Source: Candidatus Gastranaerophilales bacterium
Lineage (GTDB): Bacteria > Cyanobacteriota > Vampirovibrionia > Gastranaerophilales > Gastranaerophilaceae
Reading direction: 5' to 3'
DNA length: 58,973 bases
Assembly: GCA_947589705.1 (NCBI GenBank)
Contig: CANQCO010000001.1
Span: 1 to 58,973 of the forward strand
Within the stretch, counting starts at the first letter, position 1. The number at the start of each line of letters is the position of its first letter. The translations under genes were made by a program, and so were the position numbers. A model generated the notes under the pieces. It was not told where the DNA came from and ran no database searches. It saw nothing but the letters and a program-made list of their open reading frames with translations. This document shows, piece after piece, positions 8,536 to 58,825 of the stretch.

Positions 8536-10617
8536 ATGTTAAATACGGAGATTGAAAAATCTTCTTTTTATGAAGATTTTAAATCAGGTAAATGGCAAAG
8601 TGAAATTAATGTTAGGGATTTTATACAGAATAACTATACGCCTTATGAAGGAGACGCAAGCTTTTTAACTAATCCGACTCAGGCTACTATGGATTTGTGG
8701 CAGGAGTGCTGTGATTTATTTAAGCAGGAGAGAGAAAATAACGGCGTCCTTGATATGGATACACATATTGTATCAACAATAACCTCTCACAGCGCAGGTT
8801 ATATAAATAAAAATTTAGAAGTTATAGTAGGTCTTCAAACGGATAAGCCGTTAAAAAGGTCACTGCAGCCATTTGGCGGAATAAGAATGGCAGAAACAGC
8901 CTGTAAATCTTATGGTTATATGGTGGATAGAGAAATTTCGGAAATCTTTAACAAATACAGAAAAACTCATAATCAAGGCGTATTTGATGTTTATACACCC
9001 GAGATGAAAGCGGCAAGACATTCTGCCATAATAACAGGGCTTCCTGACGCATACGGCAGAGGCAGAATTATAGGTGACTACAGAAGAGTAGCCCTATATG
9101 GTATCGACAGGCTAATTGAAGATAAACAAAATCAATTTAAATCACTTGAAGGGGAAATGACTCCTGATAGAATCCAATTAAGAGAAGAAATTACTGACCA
9201 GATAAAAGCTCTTGAAGAAATGAAAGAGTTAGGTAAAATTTACGGTTTTGATATATCAAAACCCGCTCAAAACGCAAAAGAGGCTGTTCAATGGTTATAT
9301 TTCGGATATCTGTCAGCCGTAAAAGAGCAAAACGGTGCTGCTATGAGTATCGGAAGAACATCTACTTTCTTAGATATATTTATTGAAAGAGATTTGAAAA
9401 ACGGTATTATTACAGAAGAACAGGCGCAAGAATTAATTGACCAGTTTATAATGAAATTGAGACTTGTAAAATTTGCAAGAACGCCTGAATATAACGAACT
9501 CTTTTCAGGCGATCCAACTTGGGTAACAGAATCCATTGCTGGTATGGGCGTTGACGGTAGACCATTGGTTACAAAAAATTCTTTCAGATACCTTCATACG
9601 CTTGAAAATTTAGGTACATCCCCGGAGCCAAACTTAACGGTATTATGGGCAAAGAACTTACCGCATAACTTTAAAGAATACTGTGCAAAAATTTCCATAA
9701 CTACCTCATCCATTCAATATGAAAATGATGATTTAATGAGAGCTGTTCATGGTGATGATTACGCAATTGCCTGCTGCGTTTCATCTATGGTTGTAGGGAA
9801 AGAAATGCAATTTTTCGGTGCAAGAGCAAACCTTGCAAAATGCTTGTTATATGCGATTAACGGCGGTGTTGACGAAAGATTGAAAGTTCAGGTAGGGCCT
9901 AAATATCAGCCTGTTACATCAGAGTATCTTGACTATAATGAAGTAATGGAAAAGTATGATGCGATGATGGAGTGGCTTGCCGGGCTGTATGTAAATACTT
10001 TAAATGTAATTCATTATATGCACGACAAATACTGTTATGAAAAAGCACAAATGGCTTTAATGGATAGAGATGTTAAAAGATATTTTGCAACGGGTATTGC
10101 AGGTTTATCCGTTGTGGCAGACTCACTTTCAGCTATTAAATATGCAAAAGTTAAAACAATACGTGATGAAAACGGTATAGTTATTGACTATGAAACAGAA
10201 GGAGAGTTTCCTAAATATGGAAACAACGATGACAGAGTTGATGAAATAGCCGTAAATATTGTTAAAACATTTATGGAAAAAATAAGAAAACACTATACTT
10301 ATAGAAATTCAATACCTACAATGTCAATATTAACGATAACATCAAATGTTGTATACGGGAAAAAGACAGGCAACACACCTGACGGAAGGAAAGAAGGAGT
10401 ACCGCTTGCCCCAGGAGCTAATCCAATGCACGGACGCGATACCCATGGAGCTTTAGCTTCACTGTCATCCGTTGCAAAACTTCCATTCCACGACGCACAA
10501 GACGGTATTTCAAATACTTTCTCTATAATTCCTGACGCTTTAGGTAAGGATGAAGTATTTATGGGCGATTTGATGGTTAATTTAGATTGCGGATGCTGTG
10601 AGAATAATAATTATTAG
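8536..10617 (+). CDS. pflB: pyruvate formate-lyase (glycyl-radical enzyme), large fragment that ends before the glycyl-radical loop
   Basis: Collinear by eye with E. coli PflB from [20 protein letters not shown] through the catalytic IACCVS (Cys-Cys) to SVAKLPF...DGIS.TFSI.P.ALGKDEV. It then diverges and stops (TAG 10615-10617). Start placed at ATG 8536 (GGAGA 6 nt upstream). ATG 8524 is an alternative. Confidence 0.85.
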
Positions 10618-12749: not shown

Positions 12750-13319
12750 ATGGATAATAATTTAAAAATAGCATTTAATACTAATTTTGTTTCTTCTTTG
12801 ACAGGAGCAAGTGTATCTCAGTTAAATTTATGGGATAGAAAAGGACTTGTATCTCCAAGCATTATTAAGTCGTCTGGGAGGGGAACAATCAGACTATATT
12901 CATTTAAAGATATTATTGAAATAAAAACAGTTGTATATTTAAGAGCGAATAAAATTAGCCTATCTAATATAAAACTTGCAATATCATATCTTCAAAATAC
13001 TTTTGATTATTCTTCACCTTTATCAGAGCTATTATTAATTTCTAATGGTCAAGATGTATTATGTGCCCCCGAATCTAAAATTAATATAAATGATTATAGT
13101 GCGAAATGGCTAGCTGCAAATAAAGGTGGTCAGCTTGTAATGCCTTTTGTTGTACCTTTAGGTGCAATAACTCAAACTATTGACGCTGCAATAAAAAAAT
13201 ATAATGAAAGAATAAAAGAAGCTGAAGAACAAGAAGCGAATGGTTCTTTGATTTCATTAGAAGAGATAGAGGGAAGTATTTTTGGTGTATCAAGTAAAAT
13301 TAATAAAAAGCGTGCTTGA
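12750..13319 (+). CDS. MerR-family HTH protein (189 aa), candidate antitoxin/regulator of the downstream RelE-like gene
   Basis: Classic MerR N-terminus: F.SSLTGASVSQLNLWDRKGLVSPS....G.R.YSFKDI.EIK.VVYLR.N.ISL..IK. Its 3' end overlaps the RelE-like ORF. Confidence 0.7.
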   Translation: MDNNLKIAFNTNFVSSLTGASVSQLNLWDRKGLVSPSIIKSSGRGTIRLYSFKDIIEIKTVVYLRANKISLSNIKLAISYLQNTFDYSSPLSELLLISNGQDVLCAPESKININDYSAKWLAANKGGQLVMPFVVPLGAITQTIDAAIKKYNERIKEAEEQEANGSLISLEEIEGSIFGVSSKINKKRA

Positions 13320-13587
13320 TGAAGATATACCAAAATTGAAAAAATCGGGTATTAATTTAGAGGCACTTTATAGGTCAATAAAAAAATTAGAAACTAATCC
13401 TTATGGTAGTTCAAGAGCAAAAACCGGGGATTTGCAAGGAATTAGGGGAATGGATTGGAATAAAGGATATAGAATCCTTTTTAAAATTGATGAAGAAAAA
13501 ATGTTCGTAACTATAATGTCAATTGATAATCATGATGATTCATATAAAAAAGTCAAAAAACGAATTACATCATCTAAAAATATCTAA
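13282..13587 (+). CDS. RelE/ParE-superfamily toxin-like protein
   Basis: About 100 aa. ..DIPKL....(x)..LQGIRGMDWNKGYRILFKIDEEKMFVTIMSIDNHDDSYKK matches the RelE/ParE pattern (G.YR.i%.i......v.i..i.hr...Y). The exact start is uncertain (TTG 13282 or GTG 13285). It overlaps the upstream gene. Confidence 0.7.
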   Translation: MVYQVKLIKSVLDEDIPKLKKSGINLEALYRSIKKLETNPYGSSRAKTGDLQGIRGMDWNKGYRILFKIDEEKMFVTIMSIDNHDDSYKKVKKRITSSKNI

Positions 13588-13610
13588 GTTAATATATAAT
13601 TTCATTTTAT

Positions 13611-14633
13611 TTATTTAATTTCTTCTCTAATATGTTTGTTTATAAATTCATTTAATGCATTTTCACAACAGTATGTAAAATCGACATTATTTCCAAATAT
13701 TTCTTTATATCTATTTTTAATTCTCTCATCAGTATTAATTACATATATATTTACTTGTTTTTCTTTATTACTTAATGCTGAATCAAATAGAAATCTTATG
13801 GATAAATCAGTTACTGGAAATGAAAAACCAATAATATATATTTCATCCGCATTCTTAAGTACATCATATGCATCTGCCCATATACTTTTTAGTATATTGT
13901 GATTATAAAAATTTGTTTTATCAAGTACAGGAGGAATAATGTATGAGGTTAAGTCTTTTCGCAAATATTTGTCTACATTCCCATGTGTCATATATATAGG
14001 ATCAGCAGGATTTGTTCCTGACCAAAGCCAATTTATTGAACCATGTAGTTTATGAATAACTGGGAAATTGTCTTTTCTTTGAAATACTTTGATTGTAAAA
14101 TAATCTCCAAGGCAAGTATACCCTTGTGGTGTTCTTTCGATTATATCAATAATGGCTTGTTTATAAAAATAATTAAAGAATTTGCCGTGAGAATCTTCTT
14201 TAAATAAATAATAAAACAACAATTTTTCTAACAAAGTATCGTAATTTAGTGTAATAGATGTAATTTTGTTATCTATAATATATTTTGCCAAAACATCACT
14301 ATTTTGAAAATCGTACTCGGAGTTAATATCTATATTATTAAAATAATCTGCAATTTTATTTGTAAGTTCAAAATACAATGCTTTATCTAAATGTAACATT
14401 TGTGGATTTTGCCAAGGTAAGTCAGAATACAAATATGTTAATAAATGTTCAATATTATTTTTATATTTTTCTGAAATTTCATTCAAATGGGCATATATAG
14501 AATTTTTTGAGAAGTTATTTAATATTTCATTGGACAAATTTTTTAGTGTAGGGTATTTTTTATTATTGGTTATGCACTGTTGGGCAAGTGCAATTGAAAA
14601 ACCTGCACCAAGAAAAAATGCTTTATTTACCAT
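13611..14633 (-). CDS. stand-alone SIR2-like (SIR2_2 family) protein, putative NAD+-consuming effector
   Basis: Motifs FLGAGFS (GAGxS NAD loop), TLNYDTLLE (TxNYD), KLHGSINW (catalytic His) and IIGFSFPVTD (GxS..D), in the order seen in defence-type SIR2 domains. AGGAG lies 7 nt upstream of the ATG. The ATG lies inside the last codons of the RM gene (11-nt overlap). Confidence 0.75.
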   Translation of the reverse strand: MVNKAFFLGAGFSIALAQQCITNNKKYPTLKNLSNEILNNFSKNSIYAHLNEISEKYKNNIEHLLTYLYSDLPWQNPQMLHLDKALYFELTNKIADYFNNIDINSEYDFQNSDVLAKYIIDNKITSITLNYDTLLEKLLFYYLFKEDSHGKFFNYFYKQAIIDIIERTPQGYTCLGDYFTIKVFQRKDNFPVIHKLHGSINWLWSGTNPADPIYMTHGNVDKYLRKDLTSYIIPPVLDKTNFYNHNILKSIWADAYDVLKNADEIYIIGFSFPVTDLSIRFLFDSALSNKEKQVNIYVINTDERIKNRYKEIFGNNVDFTYCCENALNEFINKHIREEIK

Positions 14634-17436
14634 TTATAATCTCCTGATACATTTTCATTAATTCGGCGACGGTTTCGGATTCTGTCAGCCAATGGTATTT
14701 ACCGTTTTCATCTTTCTTTTTAAAGCCATAAGTTTCCATTACGGCTTTGTCGTTTTCTTGGTGTGCTTTTCTTAACTCTGGCGGCATTGTGAGTTCGTCA
14801 TATAAATCAGCTAAAGAGCAATCGGGATATAGCGCTCTGGCGTCTAAAATAGCTTTTGCAGTGCGCTCTATTTTTGTCTTTTGTTCATCCGTTGGATTAC
14901 ACCAAGGGAAATTATTGTAAACAATAGTATTTGAATATCTGTAATCACTTTTTAATCTACCGCAAACCGCTCTCATCCAAGCCATGTGGACATTAGAAGT
15001 TAAGATACCAAAATGATATATGTTAGAATTTGGAATTATAAAATTTGCATTACTGCTAATACATTCATGTGACATAAATCCTATTGGTATATATTTCCGA
15101 TTTTCAGAAGAATGACTAGGAATTAGTATATATTCAGTTTTTGGCTGTCTTATTTCCATAAATCTTGTAGGATACTCTGCAAATTTTCTAGTAGCCTTTT
15201 TTGAACTTGCCAGTCTTATTTCTTTTACTTTTTTTATTCGGTCTAGTACCAATGGACAATTTTTTAGTTCTGTAGGCGTAGATTCTATTAACCATAGACA
15301 ATATCTATCTTTTTTATTTATAAATTCTTCTGAGCCAATAAATTTTTTTATAAATTTCTTTGCTTGTGGTTCTTTTATTATAAAAGTATTATAATCATCT
15401 GCTTCAATTATTAAATTTCCTCCGTCAACAGGTATGCTTCCTTTTTCCATTATTGGCACATTACATATTGGTTTTTTAATATTGTCTATAAAGATATTAT
15501 TAGCATTTAATAAATATGCATTTATATTATCAACAAGTTGCACTCTTTCACCGGAGAATAATTTTCTTTTATTGTTATTTTGTGCACAACTAAAACCTAC
15601 AATTACACAATGAACATGTGCTTTTGAATTTGATTCACTATCCCAGCGGAATGTTCTATGTGCAAAATCAATATGAATATTGAATCTTTCAAATAATGGT
15701 TTCCAAACACCTGCTACTTGTTCGCCTTGTGTTATAGAATTTGTTGAAACTAAAGCTGTTGATATGTTCTTCCCCCCCCCCCCCGACATAAAATCAGAAG
15801 CTTTATAATACCATCCTGCAACATAATCAATTTTACCTGACGTTTTATATGGTTTTCCTTTTTCATCAACATAAATTGAAAGTATGTCATTTTTTTGTTC
15901 TTTTGATTGCAATGAATATCCTACAAACGGCGGGTTACCCATTATATAATTAAGTTTATCTTTTGATATAACATCTTGCCAATCAATTCTTAGAGCATTT
16001 CCTTCAACAATATTTGCGTATGTTTTGAGTGGCAAGAAGTCTAAATCCATATGAACTATATCTTCTGTTTTTTTCATCATTTGTGATTCAGCTATCCATA
16101 ATGCAGTTTTTGCTACCGTTACGGCGAAATCATTTATTTCAATTCCGTAAAATTGCTGTATGGAAACTTTTATCGGATTAACAATTGAGCCTAAGGTCTT
16201 TTGACCTTTTAAAAGTTCAAATAAAATTTCATTTTCCAATTTCCTTAAAGAAATATAAGTTCCCGTTAAAAAGTTTCCGCTACCACACGCAGGGTCTAAA
16301 AAATTCAAACTTGCAATTTTGTTTTGGAATTCTGATAATTTTTTATCTCTTGCCTTATTATCAGGCAGTTTCTTTATTTCTTCAAATTCTTTATTTAAAT
16401 CATCCATATATAACGGGTCAATTACTTTATGGATATTTTCTATTGAGGTATAGTGCATTCCGCCTTTTCTTCTCGTAACAGGATTTAATGTACTTTCAAA
16501 AACCGCACCGAATATTGTCGGGCTTATTTCAGACCAATCAAAATCAGCACTTGCTTTATTTAAAAGTAATTCTCTAATTTCATCGGTAAAACATGGTATC
16601 TCAATATTTTTATTTGCAAAAAGTCCGCCATTTACATAAGGGAATGCTTTTAATTCAGGCTCTAAATACGGGTCTCTATCTTCAATTTTTGTATTTAATA
16701 TTTGGAATAAATCAATTAAGGCTTTTCTCATGTGGTTTGTATCAAACTGTTTCATATAATCAAGAAACATATCATGTTTGCCGAAAATTCCCGCATCTTC
16801 CGCATACAAACAAAATACTAACCTAACACATAATATATTCAAACTTTTTAGAGTTTCTTCGTTTGTTTTATCAATATACTGATTCAATAAAGCATCATAT
16901 AAAAGCCCGACTATATCTCCGGCTTTTATTGAAACTTCCATTTCTTTTCTTAAATGTTCATTTCCTGTGTCTGTTAAAAAAGACAAACGATAATATTCTT
17001 TTTCTAAATCTTTAAGTAAAATCTCTTGAGGTTCGCCGTTTGGCTGTTCCATATCATATATGCAAAACTTCTTAAAATTAGATATTACAACCCACCTTGG
17101 TTGTTTAGAAAATGGTAATTCGGCTCTATATCTTTTTGCTTGCTGAAATGGAGTTAATAAACTTCCGTCTGATTGTTTAATAGCTTTGTTTAAATCTATC
17201 TTAGAACTTTTTTGTTCAATCAAAACTTTTGTTTCTTCAATATAACCGTCTATAAAACTTGTATGGTCTAATTTTACTTGTTCTTCAAATGTAATAAATT
17301 GTTCAGGATGTTCAACGCCTAAAACATTTCTTAATAATGAAATCCAAAATGGCTGACTTTCTCCCTTTTCGTATCCCTTATCTTTCCAGAAATCAACAAA
17401 TTCTCTAATAGATGTTCTTTGTTTTGAATCCGCCAT
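14623..17436 (-). CDS. MmeI-family type IIL (IIG) restriction-modification enzyme: fused PD-ExK nuclease, N6-adenine methyltransferase and target-recognition domain
   Basis: The N-terminus parallels MmeI: FIDGYIEETKVLIEQKS (D..ExK nuclease motif) and PRWVVISNFKKFCIYDM. SAM motif I is FLDPACGSGNFL. Catalytic motif IV is IMGNPPFVGYS. Followed by VSTNSITQGEQV. 937 aa. Confidence 0.85.
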   Translation of the reverse strand: MADSKQRTSIREFVDFWKDKGYEKGESQPFWISLLRNVLGVEHPEQFITFEEQVKLDHTSFIDGYIEETKVLIEQKSSKIDLNKAIKQSDGSLLTPFQQAKRYRAELPFSKQPRWVVISNFKKFCIYDMEQPNGEPQEILLKDLEKEYYRLSFLTDTGNEHLRKEMEVSIKAGDIVGLLYDALLNQYIDKTNEETLKSLNILCVRLVFCLYAEDAGIFGKHDMFLDYMKQFDTNHMRKALIDLFQILNTKIEDRDPYLEPELKAFPYVNGGLFANKNIEIPCFTDEIRELLLNKASADFDWSEISPTIFGAVFESTLNPVTRRKGGMHYTSIENIHKVIDPLYMDDLNKEFEEIKKLPDNKARDKKLSEFQNKIASLNFLDPACGSGNFLTGTYISLRKLENEILFELLKGQKTLGSIVNPIKVSIQQFYGIEINDFAVTVAKTALWIAESQMMKKTEDIVHMDLDFLPLKTYANIVEGNALRIDWQDVISKDKLNYIMGNPPFVGYSLQSKEQKNDILSIYVDEKGKPYKTSGKIDYVAGWYYKASDFMSGGGGKNISTALVSTNSITQGEQVAGVWKPLFERFNIHIDFAHRTFRWDSESNSKAHVHCVIVGFSCAQNNNKRKLFSGERVQLVDNINAYLLNANNIFIDNIKKPICNVPIMEKGSIPVDGGNLIIEADDYNTFIIKEPQAKKFIKKFIGSEEFINKKDRYCLWLIESTPTELKNCPLVLDRIKKVKEIRLASSKKATRKFAEYPTRFMEIRQPKTEYILIPSHSSENRKYIPIGFMSHECISSNANFIIPNSNIYHFGILTSNVHMAWMRAVCGRLKSDYRYSNTIVYNNFPWCNPTDEQKTKIERTAKAILDARALYPDCSLADLYDELTMPPELRKAHQENDKAVMETYGFKKKDENGKYHWLTESETVAELMKMYQEIINGK
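15772..15784 (-). repeat. homopolymeric tract: C13 on + strand, G13 on the coding strand of the RM gene
   Basis: Counted directly: 9 C at 15772-15780 plus 4 C at 15781-15784. Read on the minus strand as TCG GGG GGG GGG GGG AAG, giving S-G-G-G-G-K. Confidence 0.95.
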
Positions 17437-17479
17437 TCATAAATTCCTTTTTATAACATAGAGTATTATATAGCATATA

Positions 17480-18061
17480 TTAACTGTTTTGTACTAAATT
17501 AAGCAGATTGTTATAAACATCAACAGTTTGATAACAAATGGGTAATTTCCTTTTTAAAAGGCTTTTGATTGTAATTTTAAAGCTTTTTAAAAGAGCTTCA
17601 TCAAGATTATTATTTTTGTTTAAAGCTTTTTCGATTTTTTCACGAAACTTTAGTTCTCTGGTTCTTGTCTCTATTTTATCGGCAATAAAAATAATCTTTT
17701 CAAACTCGCTCATGCCTATTTTGCCTACTGTATGCCACCTGATGGAAGAAAGTATTTCTTCATCATCAACGCCCCAGTCTTTTTTTGCAATTATAGCGCC
17801 GACAGGTGCATGCCAAGTTTTTTCACTTAATTTTTCGCAATCTTCAAAATTATCTTTGTATTTTAAAAGTTCATCTTTAGGGAAACATTTTGCGCAGTCA
17901 TGCAACAGCCCTGCCAGTTGAGCCTTTTTAACATCGCAGTTAAATTTTTGCGCAAGCTCAACTGCTTTTTCCATTGTACCTATTGAATGAAGATAGCGTT
18001 CTTCAGACAGTATTTCTTTTAATTTTTCTTTTATTTCTTCAATACTATATTTTATATACAT
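17480..18061 (-). CDS. yqeK: HD-domain bis(5'-nucleosyl)-tetraphosphatase YqeK
   Basis: RY.HS.GT...A.ELA..(x)..AGLLHDCAK HD motif, about 190 aa, immediately after nadD as in the conserved nadD-yqeK pair. ATG 18061 is preferred over the TTG at 18085 in the ORF track. Confidence 0.75.
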   Translation of the reverse strand: MYIKYSIEEIKEKLKEILSEERYLHSIGTMEKAVELAQKFNCDVKKAQLAGLLHDCAKCFPKDELLKYKDNFEDCEKLSEKTWHAPVGAIIAKKDWGVDDEEILSSIRWHTVGKIGMSEFEKIIFIADKIETRTRELKFREKIEKALNKNNNLDEALLKSFKITIKSLLKRKLPICYQTVDVYNNLLNLVQNS

Positions 18062-18644
18062 TATTTTTCTCGATATATTCAGCAACTTTTAACGGTACAA
18101 GGTCAATTAAACTTTCATGGTTTTTTGCCTTTTCCCTTATAAGTGTAGCAGATATATCCCAAAATGGCATATCCGTTAAAATATAATTATAACCTTTTTC
18201 TTTTAAGTTTATAAATTGGGTTTCATCAAAATTATTATGGCGTTTAAAAAGGATAAAATTAACAAGGTCTTTGAGTTCTTGCGACCTATACCATGATTCA
18301 ATGTGGATAAAGGCATCCGTACCTATAATAAAATTAATTTTTTCGGTATTTCCCGTTATTTGATTAATTTGAGTAATTGTATCAAAGGTATATGAGGGCT
18401 TATTTCTGGTATATTCAATAGCTGAAAAATTAAAGTAGGGTATATCTTTAACTGCGAGTTCCACCATATTAAGCCTATGTATTGCATTATCGGAATCAAA
18501 CTCAGCAGAATCTTTATGAGGAGGCTTAAAGGCAGGTATAAACATAATTTCATCCATATTTAATTTGTCATGCACATATTCAGCCGCCTTAAGATGTGCA
18601 TTGTGAATGGGATTAAATGACCCTTGAAATAGACATATACTCAT
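18045..18644 (-). CDS. nadD: nicotinate-nucleotide adenylyltransferase
   Basis: N-terminal GSFNPIHNAHL nucleotidyltransferase motif, 199 aa, ISAT.IR near the C-terminus, followed by yqeK. Confidence 0.85.
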   Translation of the reverse strand: MSICLFQGSFNPIHNAHLKAAEYVHDKLNMDEIMFIPAFKPPHKDSAEFDSDNAIHRLNMVELAVKDIPYFNFSAIEYTRNKPSYTFDTITQINQITGNTEKINFIIGTDAFIHIESWYRSQELKDLVNFILFKRHNNFDETQFINLKEKGYNYILTDMPFWDISATLIREKAKNHESLIDLVPLKVAEYIEKNNVYKI

Positions 18645-18655
18645 AAACTACCTGT

Positions 18656-19516
18656 TTAAAAATGTATTTGATTAATAATTGAAAGAATTTTACCGACAAA
18701 AATTTTATAACCTTCTCTTTCAGCTTCACCTGAAAGAACAATATCCGCTATATTTTTGCATGGTCTTATATGGATTTGCGCTTTGTTTGAAGCATTTTGA
18801 TATATATTTTCGGCGCCCGAGCCCAGTCCCCTTTCATTTGCCCTTATGAAAAATCTCTTTTTTTGAATATCGGAATCTATATCAACATAAACTTTAAAGT
18901 CAAAAGCATTTCTGATTTTATCCGTGAGGGTAAAAAGACCTTCTGAAATAATAATTTTAGACGGTTCTGCCTTTGTATAATTATCCCATCTTATTGTAGT
19001 CCCTGACATATCGTACTTGGGAAGCATAACGGTTTCGCCTGAAAGCAGTTTATTAATGTGCTTATACATTAAATCAAGCTCTAAGGCTTCAGGCACGTCG
19101 AAGTCGTAATTTTTTGCAAATTCACCTATTCCGCCTGCTTTTTTGACTTCTTCCGATCTGTCATAATAGTAATCATCAGTATTAACTCTGGTTATTACTT
19201 TTTTAAGATTATGTACTTTTGAAAACTGTTCTATCTCATCAATAATATCAAGAGTAATTGTAGATTTACCGCTTGCGGTTTCACCTGCTATTCCTATTGA
19301 GGCAGAGCGTTTTATGTTTCCGCTTATAAATTTAGCAAGTTTATATATAACTTCATTTTTATAATCAACGACAACTCCAAAGGGATTGTTTATTTCTTCT
19401 TCAAATATTTTAAAGAGCTGACTTTCTATTTTATTTAAATCTACAAAGGGAGAAGAAACATATTGCTCTTCAAAAGTTTTTACTTTAGCATTATTTAGGC
19501 TGATTAGAGCTGTCAC
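18656..19516 (-). CDS. uridine kinase / phosphoribulokinase-family P-loop kinase with about 70-aa N-terminal extension
   Basis: Walker A IGIAGETASGKST, followed by a D.YY and ...IISEGLF layout typical of Udk/PRK-family kinases. Confidence 0.5.
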   Translation of the reverse strand: MTALISLNNAKVKTFEEQYVSSPFVDLNKIESQLFKIFEEEINNPFGVVVDYKNEVIYKLAKFISGNIKRSASIGIAGETASGKSTITLDIIDEIEQFSKVHNLKKVITRVNTDDYYYDRSEEVKKAGGIGEFAKNYDFDVPEALELDLMYKHINKLLSGETVMLPKYDMSGTTIRWDNYTKAEPSKIIISEGLFTLTDKIRNAFDFKVYVDIDSDIQKKRFFIRANERGLGSGAENIYQNASNKAQIHIRPCKNIADIVLSGEAEREGYKIFVGKILSIINQIHF

Positions 19517-19621
19517 AATTATTTCCTTAGCTTAAATCTTTTTTGACTATACCAAAATCAAATACAAAACAAAATATTTTTATTCAATTTGTAAAGATTA
19601 TATCAGTAATTTTTACAAAAA

Positions 19622-20563
19622 TTACAATTTATTTTGAGGCATAAAGCAACTCATATACATAGAAAAAAAAGTTAATAAACATTGTTGTTGTCCTTCTTCA
19701 GAAATACCTTTATTTTTTAATGCTTCAATATATTTTTTTGAGATGGAGTCTATGTCTTTTATTACGGATTGTTTCTGTTCTTCGCTAATTTTATATTCTG
19801 AATTAATATATGTTGGAATATATCGTATGTTTGTTAGTGCAAAAAGTAAACCACCCCAATTAATAGAACTTGGAAATTTAACCATATCAGTTAATTTAAG
19901 AGTTTTAGTTTCTTTATCAACCATTATATTATTGGAATTTATATAATCAAAAAAATAACCGCATTTTGCTGCTTCTTTAATATCATCTATTAATTTTTCA
20001 TAAGTACTGACCGGAAAAGAAGCCAGCATTGAAAGAAAATTCTCATATTTTTTTTTCATTTCTTTGGAAGAATAAAATGAATATAATTTAAAATCATCAT
20101 CGAAAAATTGTTCATATACTTCTATAGGGGCAATTCCTATAGATTCACCTTTTTGTTTTTTTAGTATAGAAATAGAAGAACAATCATTAGTCGTATTAAA
20201 ATTAATTTTAGCTACTTCTTGTCCTATATTTATTTTTAAGTTCTTGTCTTCAACATCTTCAATACTATAATTTTCTATATTGACTTCATTTATATTAAAA
20301 TCAACAGGAACTCTTAAAACATAATCATTGCAATGCGGGATAGAGTATACTTTATGAAAGAGCCCTCTGCCTATTTCATTTTTTGAACAAGACAATGTGT
20401 TTTTTAATTCTAATTGAATAAACTTTGAAGTATTTAACCAATTTACAGCTTTTGACGAAGAACAAACCTTCTTTTCAAAAATATCACCTTGGAAAGAGAT
20501 ATTTTTCTTTGCAATTGAAAAATTTCTCATTTTAACTGCGGGAGCTATAGGAGAAATTTTCAT
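19622..20563 (-). CDS. atypical protein-kinase-like fold protein, paralog B
   Basis: Paralog of 20565-21584 along its full length. Gly-rich loop IGRGLFHKVYSIP, then YVLRVP, then GYFFDYINSNNIMVD...LKLTDM (catalytic D/N and metal-binding D equivalents). Start moved to ATG 20563 (MKISPIAP), 1 nt after the upstream stop. The ORF-track extension to 20647 overlaps the neighbour. Confidence 0.5.
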   Translation of the reverse strand: MKISPIAPAVKMRNFSIAKKNISFQGDIFEKKVCSSSKAVNWLNTSKFIQLELKNTLSCSKNEIGRGLFHKVYSIPHCNDYVLRVPVDFNINEVNIENYSIEDVEDKNLKINIGQEVAKINFNTTNDCSSISILKKQKGESIGIAPIEVYEQFFDDDFKLYSFYSSKEMKKKYENFLSMLASFPVSTYEKLIDDIKEAAKCGYFFDYINSNNIMVDKETKTLKLTDMVKFPSSINWGGLLFALTNIRYIPTYINSEYKISEEQKQSVIKDIDSISKKYIEALKNKGISEEGQQQCLLTFFSMYMSCFMPQNKL

Positions 20564-58796: not shown

Positions 58797-58806
58797 CCCC
58801 CCCCCC
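58797..58806. repeat. homopolymeric C10 tract in the priA-downstream intergenic region
   Basis: Counted directly: 4 C at 58797-58800 plus 6 C at 58801-58806. Confidence 0.95.
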
Positions 58807-58816
58807 TTAAAAAATT

Positions 58817-58825
58817 TGGTATAAT
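58817..58825 (+). promoter_or_regulatory. extended -10 promoter element TGgTATAAT for the terminal small membrane ORF
   Basis: TG at 58817-58818 and TATAAT at 58820-58825, about 30 nt upstream of ATG 58855. The position expected for a -35 element falls inside the C10 tract. Confidence 0.4.

Follow-up and report, generated by a model that had tools for sequence, protein, structure and literature searches.

We examined a 58,973-nucleotide stretch of DNA (hereafter the window; contig CANQCO010000001.1 of assembly GCA_947589705.1) from a Candidatus Gastranaerophilales bacterium and found a run of 13 consecutive G residues inside a restriction-modification (RM) gene of the MmeI family. The run leaves the reading frame of the gene open, recurs with 10 G in a second lineage, and is absent from the other alleles of the gene, whose catalytic motifs are intact in the window. 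On the evidence set out below, the tract is probably a hypermutable simple sequence repeat (SSR) by which this member of the Melainabacteria, a gut bacterium, switches its RM enzyme on and off through slippage.

The G13 tract and the gene that carries it

The RM open reading frame (ORF; positions 14623 to 17436, minus strand) encodes 937 aa and was assigned by Pfam, PADLOC, and alignment to a solved structure. All five MmeI domains of Pfam (MmeI_N, MmeI_hel, MmeI_Mtase, MmeI_TRD, and MmeI_C) scored far over their respective cut-offs, giving a layout of an MmeI_N nuclease, a helical spacer, a methyltransferase (MTase) domain of the gamma-class N6A type at aa 361 to 627, a target recognition domain (TRD) at aa 645 to 846, and a C-terminal domain. 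The PADLOC model REase_MTase_IIG returned 1176 bits, and aa 9 to 909 aligned with MmeI (PDB 5HR4) at an E value of 1.7e-195. MTase motif I (DPACGSGNF, aa 381 to 389) and motif IV (NPPF, aa 501 to 504) are intact; the D...ExK motif of the nuclease was assigned as D63..E74-Q-K76 in IDGYIEETKVLIEQK by inspection only, since gaps interrupt the HMMER alignment to MmeI around it. Upstream lie a uridine-kinase-like (PRK-like) gene, nadD, and yqeK, and downstream lies a SIR2-like ORF; no separate methyltransferase gene was found among these neighbors. The gene therefore resembles MmeI itself (REBASE type IIL) in its five domains, in both MTase motifs, and in the lack of a methylase gene nearby. Domains and motifs together identify it as encoding a predicted complete single-chain RM enzyme of the MmeI family (type IIL/IIG).

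The tract occupies positions 15772 to 15784, where 13 C on the plus strand correspond to 13 G on the coding minus strand (gene nucleotides 1653 to 1665). It comprises the third base of Ser551 and four GGG codons for Gly552 to Gly555, followed by AAG for Lys556, so that the codons TCG GGG GGG GGG GGG AAG encode S551-GGGG-K556. This segment is placed between the catalytic NPPF and VSTNSITQGEQV (aa 563 to 574). The GC content of the window is 29.2%, and just two G/C runs longer than six occur in it, namely this tract and a C10 run at positions 58797 to 58806. None of 100 dinucleotide-preserving shuffles contained a run of 10 G. Moreover, Gly is encoded least often by GGG in the ORFs of the window (77 of 834 Gly codons outside the tract, 9.2%), which gives four consecutive GGG codons a probability of about 7e-5. 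Because of the shuffles and the scarcity of GGG, we do not regard the tract as a chance feature.

To follow the consequences of slippage, the RM gene was rebuilt with 9 to 17 G and translated. Tracts of 10, 13, and 16 G left the frame open and yielded proteins of 936 to 938 aa; 7 G is likewise in frame. With 9, 12, or 15 G, translation ran into a TAG stop at positions 15750 to 15752 (minus strand), and the product of 560 to 562 aa ended in GGGGRTYQQL. With 11, 14, or 17 G, 27 out-of-frame codons were read before a TGA stop at positions 15689 to 15691 (minus strand), which gave products of 581 to 583 aa. At all of these OFF lengths the protein ends between aa 560 and 583, ahead of the end of the MTase domain as defined by Pfam (aa 627), and lacks the last 50 to 70 or so MTase residues, the whole TRD, and the C-terminal domain. 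As is the case for SSR contingency loci, the repeat is uninterrupted and lies within an ORF, both as G13 in the window and as G10 in the two further copies described below, and a change in repeat number leads, in silico only, to a frameshift and an early stop; the G10 allele follows the same rule.

An earlier sequence-only reading of this DNA had anticipated most of these features. It had described a type IIL RM gene with 13 coding-strand G in DNA of about 30% GC, encoding S-GGGG-K between NPPF and VSTNSITQGEQV and keeping a 937-aa frame open, all of which agreed with our assignments. Its hand translations, which placed a TAG after 7 codons (GRTYQQL) for G12 and a TGA about 27 codons on for G14, were exact. 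The loss of the target-recognition half that it expected from a slip of one nucleotide in either direction was borne out in silico by stops that precede the TRD, and its estimate that about 1.1 kb separate the tract from the SIR2 start downstream was close to the distance of 1.14 kb that we determined to the ATG of the next ORF at position 14633.

Tract-bearing alleles and their relatives

Three sets of homologues were compared at the tract site: the best 120 proteins (75 to 83% identity), the 120 best matches to the C-terminal half, and 80 genome loci from a scan of relatives. The Gly run was missing from the loop in 118 of the best 120 homologues, most of which read ELMQ-NT-NIKTALVSTN at this place, in all 120 C-terminal-half matches, and in 78 of the 80 genome loci. 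The top match of the C-terminal-half search was 78% identical, and none of its 120 best matches was a fragment of the same allele as the window RM gene. MmeI has a turn that is two residues shorter (HYIQT-NANIR) where the window protein has S-GGGG-K. In two homologues of 1077 to 1080 aa (P0050 and P0110), a DUF559/Vsr-like endonuclease domain (PF04480, PF18741) is inserted exactly at the poly-G loop. Given the shorter turn of MmeI and a whole DUF559-type domain at the same site, the loop appears to tolerate insertions, and these comparisons support the view that the tract is dispensable as a Gly linker. The sequence-only reading had held that a Gly-rich linker of mixed GGN codons in homologues would count against a switch; the homologues carry no such mixed-codon linker there. 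An apparent second GGGG site, in the protein fragments P0140 and P0149, was rejected as a tract: its codons are GGT GGC GGA GGA, and it belongs to a decayed MmeI gene of other bacteria that is interrupted by a GmrSD gene. In human gut contigs (L082 to L085), a decayed MmeI-family gene persists as three fragments, of which the N-terminal and the methyltransferase ones are separated by a GmrSD_N (type IV restriction) gene.

Relatives in genome collections were overwhelmingly Candidatus Gastranaerophilales metagenome-assembled genomes (MAGs) of animal guts, followed by Clostridia, and the window itself is a segment of a Melainabacteria chromosome with ordinary housekeeping genes. Two of the related loci carry 10 G at the identical codon, in frame, and encode L-GGG-K. 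One is L001 (European Nucleotide Archive ERZ27060014, protein P0006) and the other is L008 (rabbit MAG Lapin-004 bin44), both derived from rabbit-gut samples. They are 99.73% identical, with 9 single-nucleotide polymorphisms in 3353 nt and no gaps, and by this similarity are one lineage sampled twice in independent assemblies. Tract length differs between the lineages, with 13 G in the window and 10 G in L001 and L008, both in frame. A single fixed length in all related genomes, which the earlier reading had also named as evidence against a switch, was not what we found.

That the window represents a lineage distinct from L001 and L008 follows from the nucleotide identities of individual segments. 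The housekeeping flanks (the PRK-like gene, nadD, yqeK, and TspO) were 70 to 78% identical between the window and related loci. Identity was 94 to 97% for the first 1500 nt of the RM gene, 92 to 93% for its last 264 nt, 92 to 93% for the SIR2 ORF, and 95 to 98% for a ParE/MerR-like gene pair. From the difference between 92 to 98% within the islet and 70 to 78% in its flanks, we conclude that the islet between yqeK and TspO was exchanged between lineages far more recently than its surroundings. This pattern points to recent transfer of a defense islet at a fixed chromosomal site. The islet spans positions 12750 to 17436 (RM, SIR2, and the ParE/MerR-like pair) and was compared with L001, L002, L003, and L008; in L003, other small genes stand in place of SIR2 and ParE/MerR.

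Within the RM gene, a central segment of 1050 nt (positions 14887 to 15936, gene nucleotides 1501 to 2550), which covers the end of the MTase domain and the TRD, was only 69 to 70% identical to the related loci. Divergence at four-fold sites was 8% in aa 1 to 500 versus 43% in aa 500 to 937. The recognition cassette is thus present as highly divergent alleles, and the pattern indicates that the recognition module is swapped between alleles.

A codon alignment of ten alleles revealed a small island of similarity around the tract (positions 15748 to 15804, minus strand; about aa 545 to 563, about 60 nt, with approximate limits). In aa 540 to 559, the window allele was 84% identical at the nucleotide level to the G10 allele of L001 and L008 and 59 to 69% identical to all other alleles. 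On both sides of the tract (aa 500 to 539 and 580 to 700), it was nearest to the common alleles L004 to L007, at 80 to 90% identity, versus 58 to 70% to L001. Over about 75 nt around the tract, the window and L001 are separated by four substitutions and the 3-nt length difference, and the other alleles by dozens of differences. A tract segment common to two otherwise different cassettes implies recombination or retention of the segment while its flanks were replaced. Of the indirect arguments, this shared island is the best one, and it argues that the tract has been kept rather than acquired by accident.

Switching by slippage and its alternatives

In the mechanism that we propose, slipped-strand mispairing at replication would add or remove a single G. 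Lengths of 3n+1 (10, 13, and 16) would give the full enzyme of 936 to 938 aa, and all other lengths would lead to a stop 7 or 27 codons on, inside the MTase domain, so that the remainder of the MTase fold, the TRD, and the C-terminal domain would be dropped. MmeI-type enzymes, which characteristically cut about 20/18 nt away from their site and methylate one strand, use one chain and one TRD for both cleavage and methylation. Because nuclease and methylase share this chain and its recognition domain, restriction and modification would be lost jointly, and a second slip would restore both. In Campylobacter jejuni, poly-G tracts of 8 to 9 switch at high rates, and extension from G8 to G11 raised mutability 10-fold with a bias to deletions (PMC3401435). 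By analogy, a change from G13 to G12, with its 7-codon tail, would be the commonest event in the window gene. Slippage fast enough to be of use to this bacterium, and an adaptive role for the switch, are inferred.

The closest known parallel, one drawn also in the sequence-only reading, is cj0031 (cj0031/cj0032), a type IIG RM gene of C. jejuni NCTC11168 that is phase-variable and has G9 within its ORF. The published description bears the parallel out: the tract is missing from most homologues, the TRD varies between strains, and restriction and modification are lost together (PMC4889913). Both genes encode nuclease and methylase in a single chain and carry an intragenic poly-G tract in mid-ORF between conserved domains, and in both a change of one nucleotide splits the gene, with joint loss of restriction and modification predicted for ours. 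Both also have a variable TRD and the tract in a subset of alleles. However, cj0031 belongs to another type IIG lineage, is 1243 aa long, and is an enzyme for which the MmeI five-domain architecture has not been demonstrated; its tract is G9, compared with G13 and G10 here. It comes from a pathogen in which poly-G loci are numerous; the window, from an uncultured commensal of the gut, has two G/C runs in 59 kb. For cj0031, measurements exist of switching, of changes in the methylome, and of phage restriction, whereas the window gene is known from sequence alone.

Similarity extends to the phasevarions of Haemophilus, Neisseria, and Helicobacter, in which type III mod or type I hsd genes combine repeat-mediated ON/OFF control of a methyltransferase, as proposed here, with allelic recognition domains. 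In contrast to the single-chain gene of the window, these systems use tetra- or pentanucleotide repeats or homopolymers in separate mod, hsdS, or hsdM genes. A phasevarion is defined by the effect of methylation on a regulon, whereas the likeness of the window gene to it is one of sequence. A search of the literature on MmeI and "phase-variable", judged by the titles and abstract openings listed, turned up no description of an SSR in an MmeI-family gene, and literature searches found no paper on phase variation in Gastranaerophilales. It is plausible that the tract represents an on/off switch of a familiar type in a group new to it; the window gene differs from cj0031 in enzyme family, tract length, and host phylum.

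Several observations weigh against a switch. All three copies observed are ON, and within the G10 lineage the tract has the same length in both samples. We searched for further tract-bearing copies with a DNA pattern (G8, 20 to 45 arbitrary nucleotides, and codons for TNSITQG) that recovered both positive controls, L001 and L008; it had no hit in contigs of Joint Genome Institute (JGI) metagenomes and none in IMG/VR. Exact look-up of nine predicted OFF products (G9, G11, G12, G14, and G15 for the window allele; G8, G9, G11, and G12 for the L001 allele) showed them to be absent from a collection of 15 billion proteins. A concatenated query of the frameshift-tail peptides of both alleles likewise found no tail-bearing protein, in a weak search that returned only proteins of 267 aa or less and missed the window protein itself. 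The window RM protein is a singleton in the protein collection and has no record in the contig index. Synonymous divergence gave no significant sign that the two alleles have retained the G run, since local four-fold divergence is 35% and 0.65^4 = 0.18. Finally, C. jejuni, from which the poly-G rates are taken, is not known to have MutS/MutL-type repair, and its rates may not be those of Gastranaerophilales.

An alternative that draws on these observations is that the tract is a mutational by-product, a Gly insertion grown by slippage in a tolerant loop, with purifying selection keeping the gene ON and OFF mutants being rare dead ends on the way to pseudogenization. The in-frame state of all three copies, the equal length in two samples of one lineage, the failure to find OFF alleles in any collection searched, and the nonsignificant conservation of the run are all as it would predict. 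The uniform ON state says little, because two independent lineages would both be ON in 1 of 9 cases by chance under random phase. Against a by-product stands the tract segment common to two allelic backgrounds, which suggests that the segment was retained or transferred and did not arise by a single accident. So does the fact that the run is uninterrupted at 10 to 13 G, although one synonymous change of GGG to the preferred codons GGA or GGT would stabilize it. We consider a by-product unlikely. The phase-variation switch put forward in the sequence-only reading is upheld as far as the tract is nonrandom, is not a required linker, differs in length (13 versus 10), and would truncate the protein within the MTase domain upon a slip of one nucleotide; the two in-frame lengths, the uniform G10 lineage, and the lack of an OFF allele in the collections searched leave it short of full support.

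It is also conceivable that the tract acts at the level of RNA, with polymerase slippage or ribosomal frameshifting on G13 setting the enzyme dose through a mix of full-length and truncated protein, and no heritable states. Long homopolymers are generally known as slippage sites, and both shifted frames stop quickly to give defined short products. However, we saw no stimulatory structure and no conserved shifted-frame product, the shifted tails differ between alleles (27 versus 10 codons in one frame, 6 versus 13 in the other), and bacterial transcriptional slippage is documented mostly at A/T runs. We consider this explanation very improbable. An assembly or sequencing artifact, such as a two-color poly-G or homopolymer miscall, might be suspected from the singleton status of the window protein and the known error of some platforms in homopolymer lengths, but the tract lies in mid-contig, keeps a 937-aa frame open, and is matched at that codon by two assemblies made independently from other samples, so that an artifact has a negligible probability and is effectively refuted as to the existence of the tract, the exact length of 13 rather than 12 or 14 being less certain.

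The overlapping SIR2-like gene and other features of the window

The ORF that follows the RM gene (positions 13611 to 14633, minus strand; 340 aa) overlaps the RM stop by 11 nt and contains the motifs GAGFS, NYD, and KLHGS, which are invariant in its family. This family has 3204 representative clusters at an E value of 1e-3 or less. Among 43 members, G9, G11, S13, N130-Y131-D132, and K195-x-H197-G198 were invariant, and Pfam matches were to SIR2_2 in 40 of the 43 and to AbiH in 4 of the 43. The family profile matched solved SIR2-like defense proteins in the PDB at 1.2e-10; the window SIR2 protein by itself had no match there by sequence, so that the profile was needed, and scored 21.6 bits, under the Pfam gathering cut-off of 24.5. 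A Curtobacterium plasmid encodes a remote homologue whose annotation reads SIR2 family protein. No relatives of the window SIR2 protein were found in JGI metagenomes, and a single-sequence AlphaFold model was unusable (mean pLDDT, a per-residue confidence measure, of 36.7). Judged by its family motifs and profile, the ORF encodes a genuine SIR2_2/AbiH-like protein. Like AbiH and stand-alone SIR2_2 defense proteins, it belongs to a family of stand-alone proteins of about 340 aa with invariant GAGxS (Rossmann), NYD, and HG motifs; unlike them, it is linked by overlap to an MmeI-type gene, an arrangement seen in this small clade only. No paper on MmeI-SIR2 linkage was found in the literature search.

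The RM-SIR2 junction is identical in L001, L002, and L008. The SIR2 ATG is preceded at a distance of 7 nt by a Shine-Dalgarno-like AGGAG (positions 14641 to 14645, minus strand), which lies within the 3'-terminal part of the RM gene and is conserved in the same three loci; with it, the SIR2 gene is equipped for independent initiation. L002 has the RM-SIR2 pair without the tract, from which it follows that the pairing is independent of the switch, and L003 has the RM gene without SIR2. A scan for promoters and terminators across positions 13300 to 19800 gave counts equal to shuffle expectation and was uninformative on an internal SIR2 promoter. It is possible, but speculative and weakly supported, that the OFF state lowers SIR2 expression through polarity or lost coupling.

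Convergent with the SIR2 gene, an ORF for a MerR-type helix-turn-helix protein (189 aa) overlaps one for a ParE-like toxin (101 aa) at positions 12750 to 13587 on the plus strand. The two are probably a toxin-antitoxin pair of the same islet. A broader scheme would join these elements into a portable poly-G switch that recombines between MmeI-type TRD alleles. It would sit in an islet (RM, SIR2/AbiH-like, and ParE/MerR-like genes) exchanged among Gastranaerophilales species, and its OFF state would also lower the overlapping SIR2 NADase, so that two layers of defense toggle in a commensal phylum without described phase variation. We regard this whole combination as distinctly improbable.

A gap of 43 nt separates yqeK from the start of the RM gene, and in it a TATAAT box at positions 17465 to 17470 (minus strand) is a possible promoter of the RM gene itself, by consensus match only. 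In the window RM protein, the segment CGRLKSDYRYS (about aa 826 to 834) has RLKSDYRYS where MmeI shows RLESRYRYS. In published specificity engineering of the MmeI family, a change of this E..R pair to K..D reportedly turns the last recognized base from C to G.

The second G/C run, C10 at positions 58797 to 58806 (plus strand), is intergenic: the stop of priA (58768) precedes it by 29 nt, and 50 nt after it comes the ATG (58856) of a small hydrophobic ORF extending beyond the window. The run occupies the -35/spacer position relative to TGGTATAAT, an extended -10-like sequence at positions 58817 to 58825. Runs of G10 or C10 appeared in 0 of 100 shuffles, and the C10 run may be a phase-variable site of the promoter type. 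A context resembling that of C10 surrounds an intergenic C9 in another Gastranaerophilales MAG (L016, positions 10537 to 10545): an A-rich stretch and TGTACAAT come after the run, and the next ORF-like stretch appears to be a tRNA gene translated as if it coded for protein.

Repeat-driven ON/OFF switching of RM systems is well documented in a few pathogens; uncultured commensals of the gut have scarcely been examined for it. If the G13 tract is such a switch, populations of Gastranaerophilales would be mixes of restricting and nonrestricting, methylated and unmethylated cells, with consequences for phage susceptibility, for gene flow, and for the reading of metagenomic methylation signals. The mechanism of repeat switching would then extend to the MmeI (type IIL) family.

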